Origin: a virus | Lineage: Duplodnaviria; Heunggongvirae; Uroviricota; Caudoviricetes | Reading direction: 5' to 3' (one strand) | Length of the DNA stretch: 32,443 nt | Virus record (IMG/VR): IMGVR_UViG_2541047794_000003 | Made by a program: the position numbers and the translations under genes | Shown: positions 4,931-19,613 of the stretch, piece by piece | How positions within the stretch are numbered: the stretch's first letter is position 1 | Layout: each line of letters starts with the position of its first letter | Notes under the pieces: model-generated | The model's database searches: none | What the model saw: the letters and a program-made list of their open reading frames with translations, nothing else | Told to the model about the DNA's origin: nothing

Positions 4931-5097
4931 GATGGCAGCCTCCGCGATGAATTTGATTAACTCACCACCGAGGTTTTCCACGACCATAAGGGTGGTGAGA
5001 CGTACAGGGGTGGAAATACCGGTCATCACGGAACCCGGCCAGCCTTGCGGCTGCCCTGCACGCCCCACCATAATGCGAATGTGGCTGTGCTTAACGC

Positions 5098-5122
5098 ATA
5101 AAAAAACCGCCTGAGCGCGGTT
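5098..5122 (-). terminator. Rho-independent terminator (minus strand) in early-left operon
   Basis: Perfect 6-bp stem AACCGC/GCGGTT with 6-nt loop followed (on minus strand) by a U-run; lies upstream of the Rha gene. Confidence 0.5.
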
Positions 5123-5799
5123 ATGCGCCGTGAATGATTTCGGGTTTCCACGCCCGGCACCCGTTTTATGAGGTGCAGGTGCACTATAATTCCACCCGTT
5201 CTGGTTTTCAATAGCTACATTCAACATTTTCTCTCACCTTTTCAGCGGAGTGAACTTTGTGATGCAGTGCCTGGTGCCTCCAGGTGACGTTAACCAGTTA
5301 ACAATTAACGCCGGATACAGAGAATCCACCCATAACACTGTTTTTGGTTTTAACTGTTCCGCGTGCGCTGAGCCGCATTCACCGCATCACAAAATTCACT
5401 TTAAAAAGGGCGGCAGAGCAGTCACGGAGTAAAACTGATACCGCCAAACGTCACCAGAAAATTGATAACAGAGGGCGTTGCAGCGGGGTTGTCACTTAAG
5501 CGTATGGTCAACCTGACAACCCGGTGTCCTCAACGGGGGAAGGAATAACCCCGCCATACTTACCGCCGCGCCATTTCGCGGATTGCCACAACCGGAAGCG
5601 CACGGTCGACGAAAATTTAACGACAGGCTATCTATGAACCAGCTACCTCGCCGTGCGCTTTCGCGTTATGGTCTGACTTTTCAGGGAAATATCCTTTCAG
5701 TAAACTGTCAGTGCCGGATTCTTATCCGTGTCCGGCGCACGACCACACGCTGTCACGAGAGGTCTCCATTCTCAACCAGTAACCTCAATGGAGGATAAA

Positions 5800-11771: not shown

Positions 11772-11879
11772 TTTTATGGATCACCTTTCTGATTGATTTC
11801 ATATTGGCGAGGTGACGTGAGTTAAGTAGAATGGCTGCGGGTGCTTGAGGCTATCTGTCTCAGGCATGAACACTGAAAG

Positions 11880-11960
11880 GCAGATAGAGAAAAGCCCCAG
11901 TTAACATTTCGCGTCCTGCAAGACGCTTAACATTAATCTGAGGCCCAATCTATGTCTCAC
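11880..11960 (-). ncRNA. Candidate Sok-like antisense RNA of the hok locus (approximate bounds)
   Basis: Minus-strand region complementary to hok leader/mok start; contains GGGGCU hairpin element analogous to Sok 3' end; candidate promoter TTGCCT-N17-TAACCT on minus strand. Confidence 0.35.
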
Positions 11961-12008
11961 AAATGTAGGTTAGCCTCTTACGTGCCGAAAGGCAAGGGGA
12001 AGCAGGCT

Positions 12009-12164
12009 ATGAAGCAGCAAAAGGCGATGTTAATCGCCCTGATCGTCATCTGTTTAACCGTCATAGTGACGGCACTGGTAACGAGGAAAGACCTCTGCGA
12101 GGTACGACTCCGAACCGGCCAGACGGAGGTCGCTGTCTTCACAGCTTACGAACCTGAGGAGTAA
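12009..12164 (+). CDS. hok: Hok/Gef-family type I toxin (small membrane peptide)
   Basis: 51-aa ORF MKQQKAMLIALIVICLTVIVTALVTRKDLCEVRLRTGQTEVAVFTAYEPEE matching Hok family pattern; leader has tac/ucb-like elements; in-frame upstream ATG at 11952 (mok-like). Confidence 0.85.
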   Translation: MKQQKAMLIALIVICLTVIVTALVTRKDLCEVRLRTGQTEVAVFTAYEPEE

Positions 12165-13661: not shown

Positions 13662-14042
13662 ATGACTGAACGCATAGAATTTGTTTTGCCTTACCCGCCA
13701 ACGGTGAACACTTACTGGCGACGCCGTGGCAGCACATATTTTGTATCAAAAGCCGGGGAGCGTTATCGCCGGGCAGTGGCGCTTATTGTTCGCCAGCAGC
13801 GGCTGAAATTAAGCCTGTCCGGAAGGTTGGCAATAAAAATTATTGCAGAACCACCGGATAAGCGCCGCCGTGACCCGGACAATATTCTGAAAGCGCCGCT
13901 GGATGCGCTGACGCATGCGGGGTTGCTAATGGACGATGAGCAGTTTGATGAAATCAATATCGTTCGTGGTCAGCCAGTATCTGGTGGACGTCTGGGGGTG
14001 AAGATTTACCCCATAATGCTTGAAGGGCAGGTCAAAAAATGA
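13662..14042 (+). CDS. rusA: Holliday junction resolvase RusA
   Basis: 126 aa; LPYPPTVNTYWRRRG ... PDKRRRDPDNILKAPLDALTHAGLLMDDEQ ... GGRL matches RusA catalytic pattern. Confidence 0.85.
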   Translation: MTERIEFVLPYPPTVNTYWRRRGSTYFVSKAGERYRRAVALIVRQQRLKLSLSGRLAIKIIAEPPDKRRRDPDNILKAPLDALTHAGLLMDDEQFDEINIVRGQPVSGGRLGVKIYPIMLEGQVKK

Positions 14043-14860
14043 AACTGGAAGATTTACCGAAATACTACTCCCCAAAATCCCCCGGCCTGACCGATGCGTC
14101 CGCCTCGACATCAAAAGATGCGCTGAGTATCACTGATGTGATGGCCGCGCAGGGCATGACACAAAATCGGGCTGAGATGGGTTTTTCTGCGTTCCTTGGG
14201 AAAATGGGCATTAGTATGAATGACAGAGAGCGGGCAACAGAATTGCTGACAGAATATGCACTCAGTCGGTGTGATCGCGTGGCGGCGTTAAGAAAACTCC
14301 CGGCAGAAATAAAACCGGTAGTGATGCGCATTATGGCTTCGTACGCTTTTGAGGATTATGCCCGCAGCGCAGCGAGTAAAAAGCAGTGCCCTTGTTGCTA
14401 TGGGGAAAAATTTATTGAAAGCGTAGTTTTTACAAACAAGGTCCAGTATCCGGATGGTAAGCCGCCGGTATGGGCAAAGTGTACGAAAGGTGTGTATCCG
14501 TCTTACTGGGAAGAATGGAAAAAAGTCAGGGAGGTGGTAAAAGTTGCCTGTCCGGAGTGTGGCGGAAAGGGTGAGGTTTCCACCGCCTGTAAGGATTGCC
14601 GTGGGCGTGGTGTCGCCATTCATCGTGAAGAGTCGGTAAAACGTGGTATGCCTGTTATCAGAGACTGCCAGCGTTGTGGTGGTCGTGGCTGTGAAAGACT
14701 ACCATCAACGGAGGCATTTAATGCCATACGCAAAGTGACGAGTGCTATCACGCTTGATACGTGGAAAAAATCAGTGAAACGCTTTTACGATACGTTGGTG
14801 GTTCGGTTTGACATTGAAGAGGCATGGGCGGAGCGGCAGTTAAAGAGGGTAACGCGATAG
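14039..14860 (+). CDS. Q: Late-gene antiterminator Q (long Q-type with multiple CxxC zinc motifs)
   Basis: 273 aa with four CxxC pairs; ATGA overlap with rusA; immediately followed by a PR'-like promoter whose -10/initial transcribed region resembles lambda PR'. Confidence 0.65.
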   Translation: MKLEDLPKYYSPKSPGLTDASASTSKDALSITDVMAAQGMTQNRAEMGFSAFLGKMGISMNDRERATELLTEYALSRCDRVAALRKLPAEIKPVVMRIMASYAFEDYARSAASKKQCPCCYGEKFIESVVFTNKVQYPDGKPPVWAKCTKGVYPSYWEEWKKVREVVKVACPECGGKGEVSTACKDCRGRGVAIHREESVKRGMPVIRDCQRCGGRGCERLPSTEAFNAIRKVTSAITLDTWKKSVKRFYDTLVVRFDIEEAWAERQLKRVTR

Positions 14861-15434: not shown

Positions 15435-16484
15435 ATGCTTAATACTGTAAAAATATCCAGTTGTGAGTTAATCAACGCCGACTGCCTGGAATTTATCCGG
15501 TCGTTACCCGAAAATTCTGTTGACCTGATAGTCACGGACCCGCCGTACTTTAAAGTGAAGCCTGAGGGCTGGGATAACCAGTGGAAGGGCGACGATGATT
15601 ACCTGAAGTGGCTGGACCAGTGTCTGGCGCAGTTCTGGCGGGTGCTGAAACCTGCCGGAAGTCTTTACCTGTTCTGTGGTCATCGCCTGGCATCTGATAT
15701 CGAAATCATGATGCGTGAACGCTTCAGTGTGCTGAACCATATTATCTGGGCGAAGCCGTCCGGACGCTGGAACGGATGCAACAAGGAAAGCCTGCGGGCG
15801 TATTTCCCCGCCACAGAGCGCATTCTGTTCGCGGAACATTATCAGGGGCCGTATCGTCCGAAAGATGCCGGGTATGCGGTGAAGGGCAGTGCACTGAAAC
15901 AGCATGTGATGGCCCCGCTGATTTCTTACTTTCGTGATGCGCGCGCGGCCCTGGGGATAACGGCAAAACAGATTGCAGATGCCACAGGAAAGAAAAACAT
16001 GGTGTCGCACTGGTTCAGTGCCAGTCAGTGGCAGCTACCGAACGAAAGCGATTATCTGAAATTACAGTCGCTGTTTGCCCGGGTGGCAGAAGAGAAACAT
16101 CAGCGCGGTGAACTGGAAAAGCCCCACCACCAGCTGGTGGATACGTATACGTCACTGAACCGGCAGTATGTGGAGCTGCAGAGTGAATATAAGCATCTGC
16201 GGCGGTATTTTGGTGTGACGGCGCAGGTGCCGTACACGGATGTGTGGACACATAAACCGGTGCAGTTCTATCCCGGGAAACATCCGTGCGAAAAACCGGC
16301 AGAAATGCTGCAGCAGATAATCAGCGCAAGTAGCCGTCCTGGTGATCTGGTTGCGGATTTTTTCATGGGGTCGGGTTCAACGGTAAAAGCGGCGATGGCA
16401 CTGGGGCGTCGTGCGATTGGTGTTGAGCTGGAGACCGGACGTTTTGAGCAGACAGTCAGGGAAGTTCAGGATTTAATCGTTTGA
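15435..16484 (+). CDS. Orphan DNA methyltransferase, probably N6-adenine (beta-class motif order)
   Basis: 349 aa; TDPPY motif IV near N-terminus and FFMGSGST motif I near C-terminus; no adjacent restriction gene. Confidence 0.8.
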   Translation: MLNTVKISSCELINADCLEFIRSLPENSVDLIVTDPPYFKVKPEGWDNQWKGDDDYLKWLDQCLAQFWRVLKPAGSLYLFCGHRLASDIEIMMRERFSVLNHIIWAKPSGRWNGCNKESLRAYFPATERILFAEHYQGPYRPKDAGYAVKGSALKQHVMAPLISYFRDARAALGITAKQIADATGKKNMVSHWFSASQWQLPNESDYLKLQSLFARVAEEKHQRGELEKPHHQLVDTYTSLNRQYVELQSEYKHLRRYFGVTAQVPYTDVWTHKPVQFYPGKHPCEKPAEMLQQIISASSRPGDLVADFFMGSGSTVKAAMALGRRAIGVELETGRFEQTVREVQDLIV

Positions 16485-16533
16485 AACGGATGAGATTGCA
16501 GAATTAATTACGCACCATTATTATTCTGCTCCC

Positions 16534-16609
16534 GGCCCTTTAGCTCAGTGGTGAGAGCGAGCGACTCATAATCGCCAGGTCGCTGGTTCAAATCCAGCAA
16601 GGGCCACCA
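16534..16609 (+). tRNA. ileZ: tRNA-Ile (anticodon CAT, lysidine type; ileZ-like)
   Basis: 76-nt cloverleaf GGCCCTT...AAGGGCC-A-CCA; anticodon loop CTCATAA; near-identical architecture to E. coli tRNA-Ile2. Confidence 0.8.
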
Positions 16610-16616
16610 TCACATA

Positions 16617-16693
16617 CCGCCATTAGCTCATCAGGAAAGAGCGCCAGCCTTCGAAGCTGGTTGCGCGGAGTTCGGGTCCCCGAAGGCGGTCCA
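16617..16693 (+). tRNA. tRNA-Arg (anticodon TCG as read), atypical
   Basis: Cloverleaf with anticodon stem CCAGC/GCTGG and loop CTTCGAA; one mismatch in acceptor stem (A6:A67) and one in T-stem, T-loop TTCGGGT; ends CCA. Confidence 0.55.
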
Positions 16694-16706
16694 TTATCTG
16701 TATCCT

Positions 16707-16783
16707 GCGTTGTTAGCTCAGCCGGACAGAGCAATTGCCTTCTAAGCAATCGGTCACTGGTTCGAATCCAGTACAACGCGCCA
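16707..16783 (+). tRNA. argO: tRNA-Arg (anticodon TCT, reads AGA)
   Basis: Perfect acceptor stem GCGTTGT/ACAACGC, anticodon loop CTTCTAA, T-loop TTCGAAT, discriminator G, CCA. Confidence 0.8.
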
Positions 16784-16829
16784 CACTTATTTTCCCTGGC
16801 TCGCTTTTGTGGGCCTTTTTTTTAAATGT

Positions 16830-17045
16830 CTCACAATTTAGGCGGTTGACTGTTGTCTGGTTTGCGGGGAGTTTGTTAAAAGAAACTGGCATGGTGAATC
16901 CCCCTGTGCGGAGGGGCAATCAGCGAGTAGGTATATGGGATAATCGCGGATTCAGGTGCTGGTACTGAATTCACCGGGAGGCACCCGGCACCATGCAATG
17001 GCACATAGCGCCACTCTCCAGCCCCTCTCCGGAGGGGCTTTTCTG
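16830..17045 (+). repeat. Module A of tandem structured non-coding element (conserved arms GCATGGTG.../...CACCATGC, internal hairpins, terminator)
   Basis: CTCACAATT + TTGACT motif, conserved arm gcatggtgaatccccctgtgcggaggggc (16889-), arm ctgaattcaccgggaggcacccggcaccatgc (-16996), terminator CCCCTC tccg GAGGGG + T-run (17022-17045). Confidence 0.5.
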
Positions 17046-17297
17046 TGCCGGATACATCACAGTTTCTGGAACCTTAGGTACTACAGTATCAGTCAGGGTG
17101 CTATATTTTCAGATGTGATGAAAGCCTGTCAGCAGGCAGGGCGTATCGGAAATGACCCAGTAGAGAAAACGTTGACTCAGATACCGGTGCTGAGTTACCG
17201 GGAAACCGGCATCACATGACCGCTATCCTTCCAGGCCCATCCGCTCCGGTGGGCCTTTTTACTGCAGAAAACAGGTTCCCCGTTAAATGCTATGTTG

Positions 17298-17532
17298 CTC
17301 ACAATTCAGTAAGTTGACAGTTGCCTGTCAGACTGGGCATTTGTTAAAAAAATTTCGCATGGTGAATCCCCCTGAGCGGAGGGGCGACTGGTGACGGTAT
17401 AATCTCTGATTATCAAAACGAGAATGACGCGGGTTTAGTGGCACCGGGCTGAACTCACCGGGAGGCACCCGGCACCATGTGCATGATGATACAGATACGC
17501 GGCTTTAGCCCCTCTCCGGAGGGGTTTTCTTG
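17298..17532 (+). repeat. Module B, second copy of the same structured element with divergent core
   Basis: Same conserved arms (17357-17479) and same terminator (17507-17532); central ~60 nt unrelated to module A; preceded by terminator GGCCCA...TGGGCC+TTTTT (17234-17261). Confidence 0.5.
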
Positions 17533-17759
17533 TGGGCAAAAAAAGCCCGCGCTGGGAGACGCGGGCGGCAAGGAATAAACAATAAAACGTGAAGTAATAT
17601 TTCAGCTGGCGAATAATACCCCATAGTAATCACTCTGCGCAACTGCGCGGTCTTTTTCGAATTGCGGGCTGTCGTCTCTCTTCTGCCATTGTCCTGTAAC
17701 TTCCGGACTTCAGCCCGCTCCTTATTTTACTCACAATATTATCCCGGCCGGGAGGATTC

Positions 17760-19613
17760 ATGGCATTTAAACACTATGACGTGGTCAGGGCGGTATCGCC
17801 GTCAGACCTTGCGAAACGACTGACACAAAAACTGAAGGAGGGCTGGCAGCCGTTTGGTAGTCCGGTGGCCATAACCCCTTATACCCTGATGCAGGCGATT
17901 GCAGCAGAAGGTGATGTGGTGGTCAGTGGTGCAACTGAGCCGGATTGGTACTACGTCATCGTACTGGCCGGGCAGTCCAATGCCATGGCTTACGGTGAAG
18001 GGCTTCCGCTGCCGGATTCATACGATGCGCCCCATCCGCGCATTAAGCAACTGGCCCGTCGTAACACAGTGACTCCCGGTGGTGAAGTATGCGTATTTAA
18101 CGACATCATTCCTGCTGACCATTGTCTGCATGATGTTCAAGATATGAGTACGATTAACCATCCCCGGGCTGACCTGAGCAAAGGGCAGTACGGCTGTGTC
18201 GGACAGGGCTTACATATTGCCAAAAAACTGCTTCCGTATATCCCTAATAACGCGGGGATCCTGCTGGTACCATGCTGTCGTGGTGGTTCGGCATTCACCC
18301 AGGGCACGGAGGGGACATTCAGCGAGTCCACGGGGGCCAGTCAGGATTCGGCTCGCTGGGGAGTGGGTAAGCCGTTATATCAGGATCTGCTTTTCCGCAC
18401 GAAGGCAGCATTGCAGAAAAACCCGAAAAACGTTTTGCTGGCGATATGCTGGATGCAGGGGGAATTCGATATGACGAATGCCAGTTACGCCCAGCAGCCA
18501 GCAGCATTTCTTGCAATGGTACAGCAGTTCCGTGCTGACCTTGCCGGGCTGGCGGCGCAGTGTCACGGTGGAAGTCCGGCATCAGTCCCCTGGATTTGTG
18601 GCGACACGACATACGCGTGGAAACAAGAACACGGTACGCAATATGAAGTGGTATATGGTGCATATAAAGGTAAAGAATCCCAGCAGATTTATTTTGTTCC
18701 CTTTATGACCGATGGTAGCGGAGTTAATACACCGACAAACAACCCGTCAGAAGATCCTGATATTGCCGGGTCTGGTTATTACGGTTCGGCATCCCGAACG
18801 AACAAAAACTGGGTATCATCAAATCGCCCGACGCATTTCAGCTCATGGGCGCGTCGTGGCATTATTCCCGATCGTATGGCAACTGCTATTCTGAACGTAG
18901 CCGGTCGCACCTTAGCCTTCATTAGTGGTAAGGCACCGGAAATCAAACCCTCGCCCGGCGGCGACACGCCATCGGGGCCGTCTGAAGATGCATCCGTACG
19001 CACAATCTCCCTGTTGCCGACAGCCGGAGATGCTGCTGCGCAGGGCTGGAGCATTAAGAATGGCGGAATTCAGTTGTCAGAGGGTGTATTTAAGATCACC
19101 AAGCAGAGCAATAAAACCTGGTACCTGATGCATCCGGTGGATGACGCAATTACCCTGCTGACACAGGGCGGCAGACTGACCTGTAAGTTCCGCCTCTCAG
19201 GCGCACTGACCAACAATCAGTTCGGGCTGGGGATTTATCTGTATACGGACGCTCCCGTTCCTGATGATGTGGCGATGACGGGTACTGGTAATCCGTTCCT
19301 GATGTCTTACTTCACTCAGACCACTGACGGCAGAGTGAATCTGATGCATCACAGGAAAGCCGGAAACACGAAGCTGGGGGAGTTTGGCGATTACGGTAAC
19401 GACTGGCAGACGCTGGAGCTGGTGTTCACCGCCGGCAGTGCCACGGTTACTCCGAAACTGAATGGAGTGGCTGGCCCGGCATTCCAGGTCATAAAAGACA
19501 GTCTGACACTGGGGCTGAATGCGCTGACGCTGACGGATGTTACAAAAAATGCAGCGTATGGCGTTGAGATAGAAAGTCTGGTGCTGGAGATAAATGCACC
19601 GGCATCATCATAA
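17760..19613 (+). CDS. Prophage sialate O-acetylesterase (NanS-p type): N-terminal DUF1737 plus SGNH/SASA esterase domain
   Basis: 617 aa; GGGAGG SD; GQSNAMAYGEG esterase motif; sits downstream of the tRNA cluster as in Stx-phage late regions. Confidence 0.75.
   Translation: MAFKHYDVVRAVSPSDLAKRLTQKLKEGWQPFGSPVAITPYTLMQAIAAEGDVVVSGATEPDWYYVIVLAGQSNAMAYGEGLPLPDSYDAPHPRIKQLARRNTVTPGGEVCVFNDIIPADHCLHDVQDMSTINHPRADLSKGQYGCVGQGLHIAKKLLPYIPNNAGILLVPCCRGGSAFTQGTEGTFSESTGASQDSARWGVGKPLYQDLLFRTKAALQKNPKNVLLAICWMQGEFDMTNASYAQQPAAFLAMVQQFRADLAGLAAQCHGGSPASVPWICGDTTYAWKQEHGTQYEVVYGAYKGKESQQIYFVPFMTDGSGVNTPTNNPSEDPDIAGSGYYGSASRTNKNWVSSNRPTHFSSWARRGIIPDRMATAILNVAGRTLAFISGKAPEIKPSPGGDTPSGPSEDASVRTISLLPTAGDAAAQGWSIKNGGIQLSEGVFKITKQSNKTWYLMHPVDDAITLLTQGGRLTCKFRLSGALTNNQFGLGIYLYTDAPVPDDVAMTGTGNPFLMSYFTQTTDGRVNLMHHRKAGNTKLGEFGDYGNDWQTLELVFTAGSATVTPKLNGVAGPAFQVIKDSLTLGLNALTLTDVTKNAAYGVEIESLVLEINAPASS

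Follow-up and report, generated by a model that had tools for sequence, protein, structure and literature searches.

Tandem STnc100-type small RNA genes in the late region of a lambdoid prophage

The window (the whole stretch of DNA analysed, 32,443 nucleotides of the Caudoviricetes record IMGVR_UViG_2541047794_000003) contains a late region in which Q (PF03589), a methylase, three tRNAs, a group of sRNA genes, a NanS-p-type esterase, and a P21-type holin follow one another. The tRNA cluster and NanS-p esterase that the preliminary description of this DNA gave as flanks are recognised by ARAGORN and Pfam, respectively (Table 1); tRNA-Met(CAT) is labelled tRNA-Ile/ileZ in RefSeq at the identical locus of strain 55989. 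Between these flanks lie three plus-strand genes in tandem and one convergent minus-strand gene. In every plus-strand gene an extended -10 promoter precedes a structured 5' domain, which is followed by a variable tail and a terminator. Two tandem modules had been described here previously. Both are present, but a third, diverged copy at 17089-17262 had been overlooked, as had the convergent gene, the known family status of the modules, and the occurrence of the exact locus in 318 of 5,426 complete E. coli genomes. Strains with this exact locus include 55989, UTI89, S88, and ATCC 11775. The module period is ~222-246 bp, and the 468-bp spacing of the two similar copies amounts to two periods because the diverged copy occupies the gap. 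The inspected RefSeq records have no ncRNA annotation on the sRNA genes and at most a pseudo "hypothetical protein" over gene 1.

Table 1. Coordinates of the sRNA genes, their parts, and flanking features in the window
Feature	Position	Strand	Basis
tRNA-Met(CAT)/tRNA-Arg(TCG)/tRNA-Arg(TCT), upstream flank	16534..16783	+	ARAGORN; Rfam tRNA matches
Post-tRNA terminator (hairpin 16798-16815 plus T-run)	16798..16823	+	terminator scan
Gene 1 conserved upstream element, TTAAATGT-CTCACAATT-n7-TTGACTGTTGTCTGG	16818..16862	+	upstream-sequence clusters
Gene 1 predicted extended -10 (TG 16874-16875, TAAAAG 16877-16882)	16874..16882	+	read from sequence
sRNA gene 1 (EcOnc05 type; core C0, tail T0)	16889..17046	+	Rfam STnc100 136.3 bits; R1 111 bits; fold
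Gene 1 structured domain	16889-16995	+	
Gene 1 pseudoknot partners	16919-16925 and 16957-16963	+	
Gene 1 linker/putative seed	16996-17019	+	
Gene 1 terminator (U-run follows)	17020-17039	+	
Gene 2 predicted extended -10 (TG 17099-17100, TATATT 17102-17107)	17099..17107	+	read from sequence
sRNA gene 2 (diverged; core C1, tail T1)	17113..17262	+	Rfam 30.1 bits; R1 54.2 bits; fold
Gene 2 domain	17113-17219	+	
Gene 2 pseudoknot partners	17144-17149 and 17184-17189	+	
Gene 2 linker	17220-17232	+	
Gene 2 terminator (T-run follows)	17233-17256	+	
Gene 3 conserved upstream element (CTCACAATT at 17298, TTGACAGTTGCCTG at 17315)	17286..17330	+	
Gene 3 predicted extended -10 (TG 17342-17343, TAAAAA 17345-17350)	17342..17350	+	read from sequence
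sRNA gene 3 (EcOnc27 position; core C2, tail T2)	17357..17533	+	Rfam STnc100 161 bits; R1 110.9 bits
Gene 3 domain	17357-17479	+	
Gene 3 pseudoknot partners	17388-17393 and 17442-17447	+	
Gene 3 linker	17480-17506	+	
Gene 3 terminator (U-run follows)	17507-17526	+	
Minus-strand sRNA gene, EcOnc08/21/42 homologue (Sakai Sp4)	17538..~17731	-	terminator, identity, probe core
Minus-strand gene terminator	17566-17545	-	terminator scan
Third CTCACAAT, 23 nt before the esterase start codon	17730..17737	+	
NanS-p-type esterase (DUF1737-SASA-DUF6645), downstream flank	17760..19613	+	Pfam

Genes 1 and 3 share an 88-nt 5' arm (16830-16917 versus 17298-17385, 78% identity) and a 31-nt 3' arm (16965-16995 versus 17449-17479, 97% identity). 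As previously described, the ends of the arms are complementary, pairing as GCATGGTG with CACCATGC in the first of these copies and as CACCATGT in the second, and both copies are closed by the same intrinsic terminator (CCCCTCTCCGGAGGGG followed by a T-run). The linker from the 3' arm to the terminator is also unlike between the two. The ~60-nt core was thought to be unrelated between copies, which is true of ~25-45 nt that cannot be aligned, but P4 and the pseudoknot partner segment (see below) are common to both. The CTCACAAT motif occurs, as claimed, three times (16830, 17298, and 17730) and at no other site in the window; at least three occurrences arose in 5 of 100 shuffles, and two of the three real sites are homologous copies. 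The TTGAC(T/A)GTTG box reported for each module lies 17 nt 3' of the first two motifs. There are 10 terminator-like sites in the region versus 1.4 expected, and on the plus strand terminators stand in series at 16798, 17020, 17233, and 17507. The T-run of the first, which has an annotated counterpart at the equivalent spot in phi24B, runs into the conserved TTTTAAAT just before CTCACAATT.

Genes 1 and 3 belong to a known family. In an Rfam covariance scan both match STnc100 (RF02076) across model positions 1-206, with 136.3 bits (16860-17050) and 161 bits (17328-17537), respectively, against a cut-off of 47, and the locus has the consensus fold (closing helix, three hairpins, and terminator) at a phage late-region site. 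In E. coli O157, STnc100 is represented by EcOnc05, EcOnc06, and EcOnc27/sRNA103; genes 1 and 3 are full-length members. Copies of STnc100 are transcribed in EDL933, one of them verified by Northern blot (PMC5331693). We also built a covariance model of the domain (R1) from 26 sequences. Its best score in a negative control of 600 kb of unrelated genomes, all with a 16-nt motif, was 24 bits, and the control loci are chance matches, in GC-rich genomes, to a pattern with 16 specified bases.

Gene 1 and EcOnc05 of the O157 Sakai prophage Sp4 are the same gene. The sole difference in the compared region is T/C at 16839, within the upstream element, and both this element and the downstream neighbourhood are shared. 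The reverse complement of the EcOnc05 probe corresponds to 16917-16951 (35 of 35 bases), and the published qPCR amplicon to 16890-16982. EcOnc05 was recovered by Hfq crosslinking and is ~222 nt long on a Northern blot (Tree et al. 2014, PMC4104026); its Hfq cluster covers much of the structured domain. Gene 3 is the positional orthologue of EcOnc27/sRNA103, which lies just 3' of stxB in Stx2 phages, and is collinear with the post-stxB gene of phi24B. EcOnc27 gives 235/247-nt bands, of which the 247-nt form is destabilised without Hfq, and its Hfq cluster, once coordinates are shifted with AsxR as the calibrator, falls on the 3' ~80 nt. The only effects reported for EcOnc27/sRNA103 are indirect ones on fimZ and espA upon overexpression. 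Variants of EcOnc27 in Stx2 phages are statistically associated with HUS risk (PMC12711010).

Gene 2 behaves as a member of STnc100, yet lies outside the family by the Rfam cut-off (30.1 bits, E 1.7e-4, for 17089-17262). It should be noted that its R1 score of 54.2 bits is not independent because gene 2 is among the 26 training sequences; a sister class with 91% identity, which was outside the training set, scores 34.9 bits. Every helix is retained through compensated changes, including the closing helix (AUGUGAUG/CAUCACAU). Between the two classes the promoter, the linker, and GGGTGCTATATTTTC are constant, and P2 is remodelled but still a hairpin. Gene 2 is present in 673 of 5,426 complete E. 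coli genomes (~12%), and 11 of 12 among the matches listed have no annotated feature under them.

The STnc100-type 5' domain appears to consist of a closing helix (P1), hairpins P2, P4, and P5, and a pseudoknot that joins the segment directly after P2 to the P4 loop. The nested helices were tested on 55 distinct sequences with 500 shuffles and slid controls: 99.0% of the cells in the four helices are paired, 15 of 23 pairs are altered on both sides, no shuffle equals the observed value, and the slid controls are 38-51% paired. For the pseudoknot, 91.8% of cells are paired and all seven pairs are altered on both sides; the slid controls for pseudoknot plus P4 are 21-41% paired, a comparison that is partly non-independent because about half of the rows in the hand-padded alignment were registered by sequence homology and six by eye. 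MAFFT and covariance-model alignments leave the pseudoknot segments of the commonest core types one column out of register, and therefore an N-padded gapless alignment was used, with some registers set by hand. The alleles include AUCAGC/GCUGRU, CUGGUG/CACCGG, CUGGUG/UACCAG, AAUGAC/GUCAUU, AAUGAUC/GAUCAUU, ACUGAUU/AAUCAGU, and UAUCAGUAC/GUACUGAUA. Cognate segments form 6.9 bp versus 4.4 bp for non-cognate ones, a test that is only moderately discriminating because alleles cross-pair through G-U. Single-sequence fold z-scores are modest (-2.0, -2.7, and -1.0 for genes 1, 2, and 3), and the minimum-energy fold of gene 3 departs from the consensus. The compensatory changes, which the preliminary description had proposed as a check, support the helices and show selection on RNA structure. 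With membership of a curated sRNA family, this bears out the earlier view that the modules are structured RNA rather than coding sequence.

A homologous domain occurs in the distant relatives PasD1 and PasD2 of EPEC E2348/69 (homologues of EcOnc13), which share with the window genes the 5' domain from GCAUGGUGAAUCC, including P4 and the covarying pseudoknot AAUGAUC/GAUCAUU. PasD2 occupies the same kind of slot, upstream of an esterase. However, the PasD RNAs fall under the Rfam STnc100 cut-off, have a shortened 3' side of P5/P1, and end in a different tail with a UGUGAG seed that is found in none of the window genes. The tails are unrelated and only the 5' domain aligns; the only blastn alignment of the window with PasD1/PasD2 covers 62 columns (58 window bases) at 76% identity. 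PasD1 and PasD2 are reported to be Hfq-dependent, with a predicted seed immediately 5' of the terminator (PMC8550237). This dependence is based on the authors' Northern blot, because levels in the RNA-seq table of the same paper show no significant change. A 2026 preprint derives PasD and STnc100 from a common ancestor. We found no earlier description of a pseudoknotted portable module shared by the two, nor, in the consulted publications that mention STnc100, of the pseudoknot, tandem arrays, or core/tail shuffling.

Start sites of the plus-strand genes at this locus are ambiguous. The extended -10 elements place +1 where P1 begins, as in PasD, which would be G16889 for gene 1 and G17357 for gene 3 (where the geometry matches that of gene 1 and PasD). 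The 5' end of PasD2, set from RNA-seq coverage and Northern band size, coincides with this same G of GCATGGTG, and that of PasD1 also lies there (PMC8550237). The Northern bands of EcOnc05 (~222 nt) and EcOnc27 (235/247 nt) rather suit a start ~60 nt upstream, near CTCACAATT, and the Rfam model begins 29 nt upstream of the extended -10-based start. The gene-1-type upstream element is kept before most canonical family members (42 upstream-sequence clusters) and may contain the promoter and start of a longer form of the transcript or else be a site for a regulator. A consensus scan of the locus returned no plus-strand promoter. TTGAC(T/A) was considered as a -35 hexamer and rejected, since the extended -10 is 24 bp away and no acceptable -10 is found 16-18 bp downstream.

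The convergent gene contains the 18-nt probe core of EcOnc08/21/42, known from Sakai Sp4 and the Stx1 phage, exactly (17625-17642), and the interval from the gene 3 terminator to the esterase start is ~97% identical to Sakai Sp4. It also resembles an EPEC RIL-seq sRNA candidate, E2348C_1409.E2348C_1408.IGR. The placement of its 5' end is uncertain: there is a promoter-like site with a -10 at 17743-17738, and the ~271-nt Northern size in Sakai would put the start within the esterase ORF. The third CTCACAAT adjoins this -10 and is identical in Sakai Sp4; TATTTTACTCACAAT at that point is similar to TATGTTGCTCACAAT of gene 3, so the motif may be a remnant of a module boundary. AsxR (RF02703) and AgvB (RF02702) occupy the same moron site, facing STnc100-type genes from the minus strand in Sp5, Sp10, and Sp17, and likewise have a conserved and a variable part, but they are 51-60 nt long and unrelated in sequence to the window's partner of EcOnc08/21/42 type. 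Neither has a match in 16780-17780 at E up to 1, which rules them out as the minus-strand gene. In the equivalent place, phi24B has AsxR (88 bits).

The same late-region arrangement is found in Sakai Sp4, phi24B, and phi296. As at known STnc100 sites, the genes lie between Q/pR' and the esterase/lysis genes and are paired with a convergent sRNA. Such prophage sRNA "dyads" were described in 2014; the Sakai prophage dyad has one STnc100-type gene, whereas here there are three in tandem. The Stx2 phage phi24B is collinear with the window to 16824 and again from 17325, and its stx2AB cassette stands in place of 16825-17324. Thus, the proposal that the modules fill the stxAB slot of a 933W-like late region lacking stx is upheld by alignment to the stxAB flanks. 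Nor are the modules scrambled stx flanks without structure, or ERIC-like repeats without a transcript. ERIC/REP elements are imperfect palindromes dispersed between core-genome genes and lack a promoter or terminator of their own, whereas the present units are repeated in direct orientation and each includes a promoter-like element and a terminator. All loci with inspected genes, like every sampled IMG/VR contig, belong to phages or prophages. IpeX, from the cryptic prophage DLP12, is also a prophage sRNA encoded between a Q homologue and lysis genes. Kinship with it was rejected because the DLP12 locus (K-12 571000-581000) has no Rfam match at gathering scores and no R1 match at E<=0.001; IpeX itself is a processing product of nmpC mRNA (PMC12197685).

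Three-gene arrays were found in 64 sampled loci. Overall, clustering of ~340 modules yields 17 types of core and 16 of tail, in many combinations (e.g., core C0 with six tail types and C3 with four), and phi296 has a single chimera of the gene 3 core and the gene 1 tail. Head-to-tail sRNA genes with a common scaffold and partly different sequence are known from OmrA/OmrB, PrrF1/PrrF2, and the Qrr RNAs. Siblings of those types have a largely common seed and are core-genome genes, whereas here the tails differ entirely and the genes are prophage-borne. One reading, which we put forward tentatively and at less than even probability, is that the conserved 5' domain is a portable pseudoknotted module to which seeds and inserts are attached by recombination in the arms, with up to three or four genes stacked, and that loci of this type serve as a cassette system for diversifying sRNA regulators. 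On this reading the Qin prophage of E. coli K-12 would have a homologous domain with the same fold, located between dicF and dicB. Its function might then be a general one, such as stabilising RNA or binding a conserved protein, and not one confined to sRNAs.

The best explanation for the locus as a whole, in which we have high confidence, is that 16818-17760 is an sRNA moron site in a lambdoid prophage late region, encoding three separately transcribed, Hfq-associated, trans-acting sRNAs and one convergent sRNA. Transcription and Hfq binding are taken from the literature on matching or orthologous genes, and would probably apply here by analogy. Each plus-strand gene would be transcribed as a separate unit, from a sigma-70 promoter of the extended -10 type to an intrinsic terminator, yielding a ~150-235-nt RNA in three parts: the conserved 5' domain, a variable insert inside it, and a variable 20-30-nt linker followed by the terminator/U-tail. 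Linker and terminator may be the module for Hfq binding and target pairing, such that the three genes would provide three different seeds for trans-acting control, in the lysogen, of mRNAs from the host or the prophage. That specificity lies in the 3' linker rather than the core seems more likely from analogy with PasD and, weakly, from the position of the EcOnc27 Hfq cluster. The 5' domain, paired from its first nucleotides, could be a portable scaffold against 5'-end-dependent decay or could bind a conserved partner; putative CsrA binding at GGA motifs is a lead. Upon induction, RNA polymerase modified by Q would set out from pR' and pass each of the four plus-strand terminators on its way to the esterase and lysis genes. 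Recombination in the conserved arms would give rise to new members of the family.

The series of four terminators also admits an unlikely alternative, that the modules are mainly cis-acting insulators with the RNAs as by-products: standing between the tRNA promoter and the esterase/lysis genes, the stack would silence the latter in the lysogen and let only Q-modified polymerase pass. The position between pR'/Q and the lysis genes fits this, and there is a precedent in StxS, the terminated pR' transcript that is itself an sRNA (PMC7547250). However, a single terminator would be enough for insulation, which makes a 105-125-nt domain with compensatory changes, a private promoter per unit, and conserved linkers superfluous, and the homologues accumulate as discrete Hfq-bound RNAs. 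An insulating role is compatible with trans-acting sRNA genes and no substitute for them.

Much less probable is that the arms are recombination linkers (mosaic-boundary homology for cargo swaps) and the variable parts neutral filler. The many core/tail combinations and the phi296 chimera are what such linkers would produce, and the stx2AB cassette ends ~30 nt before the post-stxB 5' arm (17325 versus a gene start at 17357). Recombination requires identity and not pairing, though, and P1, P4, and pseudoknot pairs change on both sides yet stay paired, in units that all keep a promoter and a terminator. The recombination scaffold of the preliminary description therefore survives in an evolutionary sense, as cores and tails have been shuffled over the arms, but it accounts for the origin of the diversity and cannot explain the conserved fold, because the compensatory changes show selection on RNA structure. 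We give still less credence to small proteins translated from an ATG 11 nt after the GGAGG of the 3' arm. This would open a 41-codon ORF at 16993-17118, with shorter ORFs from the corresponding point of the two remaining copies, and some EDL933 copies of STnc100 have ribosome footprints with coverage up to 3.2, against only 0.04-0.24 in others (PMC5331693). The coding reading was rejected, since the ATG lies within the 3' strand of P1 and disappears in sequences where this helix covaries (CGCCATA, CACCACG, CACTGCA), and no peptide is conserved because the downstream frames cross unrelated tails and terminators.

The modules are thus an already catalogued prophage sRNA family, and the finding is real but ordinary. 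The case shows that real structured RNA genes can be recognised from sequence alone. It is also of practical relevance, given that the genes lack ncRNA annotation in the inspected RefSeq records and that the middle gene escapes the Rfam cut-off. What the analysis may add to knowledge of the family is the pseudoknot and the homologous domain located between dicF and dicB. If these and the exchange of cassettes prove true, they would help explain how prophages make new host regulators, and would provide a defined structural target for asking why the domain is conserved.

The locus belongs to an already known family of small RNAs, STnc100, at an already known site. Both modules that the preliminary description had reported as a tandem pair are full-length matches to RF02076 (STnc100) in Rfam 15, at 136.3 bits for gene 1 (16860-17050) and 161 bits for gene 3 (17328-17537), far over the gathering score of 47 bits. 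The reading of the modules as structured RNA was therefore correct, with helices supported by covariation, but the count was not: a diverged third gene lies between them, and the 468-bp spacing comprises two periods (222 and 246 bp). This middle copy (17089-17262) scores 30.1 bits (E 1.7e-4) for STnc100 in a permissive Rfam scan of the region, below the gathering score. Our own covariance model (R1), built on the structured domain of 26 diverse members, gives 111, 54, and 111 bits for gene 1, the middle copy, and gene 3, respectively; because the middle copy is among the training sequences, its 54 bits are no independent test. Its sister class (91% identity, outside the training set) scores 34.9 bits, and the best score in 600 kb of unrelated genomes, all with the 16-nt 5' motif, was 24 bits. 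Given the match, the terminator that it carries at 17233-17256, and compensatory changes in its closing helix (P1, AUGUGAUG/CAUCACAU instead of CAUGGUG/CACCAUG), the array comprises three genes.

Features of the array and its surroundings (window positions unless stated)
Feature	Position	Strand	Details
sRNA gene 1	16889-17046	+	core C0/tail T0
sRNA gene 2 (middle)	17113-17262	+	core C1/tail T1
sRNA gene 3	17357-17533	+	core C2/tail T2
Extended -10, gene 1	16874-16882	+	TGTTAAAAG
Extended -10, middle gene	17099-17107	+	TGCTATATT
Extended -10, gene 3	17342-17350	+	TGTTAAAAA
88-nt direct repeat (5' arm)	16830-16917 and 17298-17385	+	78% identity between copies
31-nt repeat (3' arm)	16965-16995 and 17449-17479	+	97% identity
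Terminator	17020 and 17507	+	AGCCCCTCTCCGGAGGGG; from repeat comparison
P2 loop-edge GGA motif			GCGGAGGGG
P5 loop-edge GGA motif			GGGAGGCA; GGGAAAC in middle gene; UGGAGGCA next to DicF
41-codon ORF	16993-17118	+	ATG in 3' strand of P1, 11 nt after GGAGG
Convergent sRNA gene	17538 to ~17731	-	terminator 17566-17545
Upstream flank			three tRNAs
Q antiterminator	14039-14860		PF03589; upstream of locus, along with DNA methylase
Downstream flank			esterase, DUF1737-SASA-DUF6645
Further downstream			P21-type holin and DUF1327 gene
DicF	5459-5408	-
STnc100-like pseudoknotted domain	5387-5263	-	R1 40 bits; directly downstream of DicF, before IsrK
IsrK	5176-5100	-
C4 antisense RNA	5075-4988	-
K-12 copy of DicF-linked element	L197 1956-2080		E. 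coli K-12 MG1655 1649455-1649579
sok antitoxin match	11839-12014	+	Rfam, 120 bits

The repeats, motifs, and terminators first noted are present as described. The 88-nt repeat opens with CTCACAATT, has TTGAC(T/A)GTTG inside it, and closes with GCATGGTGAATCCCCCTG.GCGGAGGGGC. All three occurrences of CTCACAAT in the window fall inside one 900-bp stretch of the locus, where 10 terminator-like sites were observed (1.4 expected). The motif at 16830, 17298, and 17730 (+), CUCACA(A), is also common to RIL-seq targets of PasD1/PasD2 (seed UGUGAG). If longer forms of the transcripts or the 5' UTR of the esterase gene contain it, PasD could target them, although this may be coincidence. GCTCACAATT at 17296 is one half-site of the symmetric lac operator.

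RNAalifold, applied to 26 diverse domains, predicts P1 (7 bp) and the hairpins P2, P4, and P5. In a model-based alignment of 55 distinct sequences the nested helices are 99.0% paired and 15 of 23 pairs change on both sides; slid controls gave 38%-51%, and none of 500 shuffles reached the observed values. A segment 2 nt past P2 can pair with the 3' portion of the P4 loop, and the two covary as discrete alleles, forming a candidate pseudoknot. Here, in 40 distinct sequences aligned without gaps by N-padding (sequence homology set the register in about half of the rows, and six were placed by eye), all seven pairs change on both sides and 91.8% of cells pair, against 21%-41% in slid controls (pseudoknot plus P4); none of 500 shuffles reached the observed values. 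Pairing of cognate versus non-cognate strands discriminates more weakly because of G-U cross-pairing, and in core type C5 the two strands are nested, not knotted. In the preprint comparing PasD with STnc100 (10.64898/2026.05.13.724894), we found nothing about a pseudoknot. GGA motifs occur at loop edges (16909-16913 and 16976-16980, with equivalents in genes 2 and 3); nowhere is the family more conserved than at that of P5, a possible binding site of CsrA type or related to the ribosome.

Transcription of family members is documented. In O157 Sakai, where Hfq-RNA crosslinking was performed (Tree et al. 2014; PMC4104026), at least eight lambdoid prophages were described as having convergent sRNA pairs in the interval from the moron genes, downstream of pR', to a conserved phage ORF. 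The reverse complement of the EcOnc05 Northern probe, which detected a band of ~222 nt (PMC4104026), equals window 16917-16951 exactly. Sakai Sp4 has, in order, the tRNAs, the terminator, and a single gene matching gene 1, then ~97% identity to the window up to the esterase; its gene differs from gene 1 by one upstream-element base (16839, T in the window versus C in Sakai). EcOnc27 (sRNA103 in EDL933), 3' of stx2B in Sp5, is an STnc100 member with a different tail, and its probe matches the tail of the phi24B copy. Its bands are 235/247 nt, with the 247-nt form destabilized without Hfq (PMC4104026), and its Hfq cluster falls in the 3' ~80 nt once the coordinate shift is calibrated on AsxR. 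A published STnc100 qPCR amplicon (PMC12370729) corresponds to window 16890-16982; in EDL933, 11 annotated copies are transcribed, one confirmed by Northern blot (PMC5331693). The 2026 preprint (10.64898/2026.05.13.724894) concluded that PasD1/PasD2 of EPEC and STnc100 share a common ancestor, and noted STnc100 matches near Pas genes. The RefSeq records inspected carry no ncRNA annotation for these genes. The record for strain 55989 has a pseudo "hypothetical protein" that overlaps gene 1 from the other strand, and of the 12 records shown for the middle gene, 11 are free of any feature at the match.

In each gene the extended -10 would set +1 at the base that opens P1. Support for this start comes from PasD2, whose 5' end, set by its authors from RNA-seq coverage and Northern size (PMC8550237), falls on the same G. 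However, the EcOnc05/EcOnc27 Northern sizes fit a start ~60 nt further upstream, near CTCACAATT. An upstream element, TTAAAT-n2-CTCACAATTCAG-n4-TTGAC-n-GTTGTCTG, is kept upstream of most canonical members; TTGACT was rejected as the -35 of the extended -10, being too far away (24 bp). Ribosome footprints have been reported on some EDL933 STnc100 copies (PMC5331693). We nevertheless rejected a coding role for the 41-codon ORF: its peptide lacks conservation, and members in which P1 covaries have lost the ATG, which is part of the helix's 3' strand.

The placement in the slot where Shiga-toxin phages carry stxAB was borne out by Stx2 phage phi24B. Collinearity extends over 16401-16824, through the tRNA terminator, and resumes at 17325-17867, which takes in gene 3, the convergent region, and the start of the esterase. 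The stx2AB cassette sits in place of 16825-17324, a stretch holding gene 1, the middle gene, and some of the gene 3 upstream element. Judged from these alignments, Stx2 phages are not without the family, as one gene is retained beside stxB.

Approximately 340 modules from ~190 IMG/VR contigs fall into 17 core and 16 tail clusters in many combinations. The window's C0/T0, C1/T1, C2/T2 array occurs in 53 sampled loci (a C3 variant in 11), and the middle type was never seen alone in the sample. One other locus (L011 2327-3350, -) has four STnc100-type genes in tandem, one with closing helix AUAUGGCG/CGCCAUA. Other prophages, among them L023, L074, and L082, likewise have arrays unlike the window's, including three-gene ones with other core/tail types, so stacking in tandem characterizes the site in general. 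Of 5,426 complete E. coli genomes, 318 contain the exact 1.3-kb locus (including 55989, UTI89, S88, and ATCC 11775) and 673 the middle gene, as two classes (91% identity) with promoter and linker (the stretch before the terminator) unchanged and P2 remodeled into a different hairpin. Phage phi296 (L003 2931-3101) has a single gene, a chimera of the gene 3 core and gene 1 tail, a structure that fits recombination between array members inside the conserved 3' arm.

EcOnc08/21/42 (Sakai Sp4) and the RIL-seq candidate E2348C_1409.E2348C_1408.IGR of EPEC are homologues of the convergent gene. Given the ~271-nt size of this RNA type in Sakai (PMC4104026), the gene probably runs antisense to the 5' UTR of the esterase and, by size, to the start codon. 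It contains CCUUGCC, which is similar to CUUGCG, a seed proposed in EPEC. A plus-strand terminator-like hairpin (17635-17650, CTGCGCAACTGCGCGG + TCTTTTTC) lies between the convergent gene's terminator and the esterase gene; alternatively, the minus-strand RNA may form it as a structural hairpin.

The domain downstream of DicF has a compensated P1 (UGCGGUG/CACUGCA) and its own pseudoknot allele (CAGUUAA/UUAACUG); four IMG/VR loci have the same element after DicF. The K-12 Qin prophage has it in the dicF-dicB interval (R1, 40.2 bits, E 2e-8), ending ~29 nt before the dicB start codon. We found no description of it in the literature checked, including a dicBF paper that gave no match on secondary structure or on the dicF-dicB spacer. 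The non-coding elements of this early/immunity region form a one-strand run (4988-5459, -), and a long ORF (5227-4373, -) overlaps IsrK and the C4 antisense RNA. Elsewhere, the Rfam sok match implies a hok/sok-type toxin-antitoxin locus inside the prophage.

We propose that the array encodes three independent, Hfq-associated, trans-acting sRNAs. Established lambdoid biology implies Q-dependent read-through on induction. The linker plus terminator would be the module for pairing and Hfq binding; the pyrimidine-rich stretches directly before the terminators of genes 1 and 2 (CUCUCC and CCUUCC) would suit ribosome-binding-site targets. The pseudoknotted 5' domain would be a scaffold, stabilizing the RNA or binding a partner. 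The interest of the locus rests on the diverged gene that had been missed, the candidate pseudoknot, the cassette-like shuffling of cores and tails, and the homologue between dicF and dicB.
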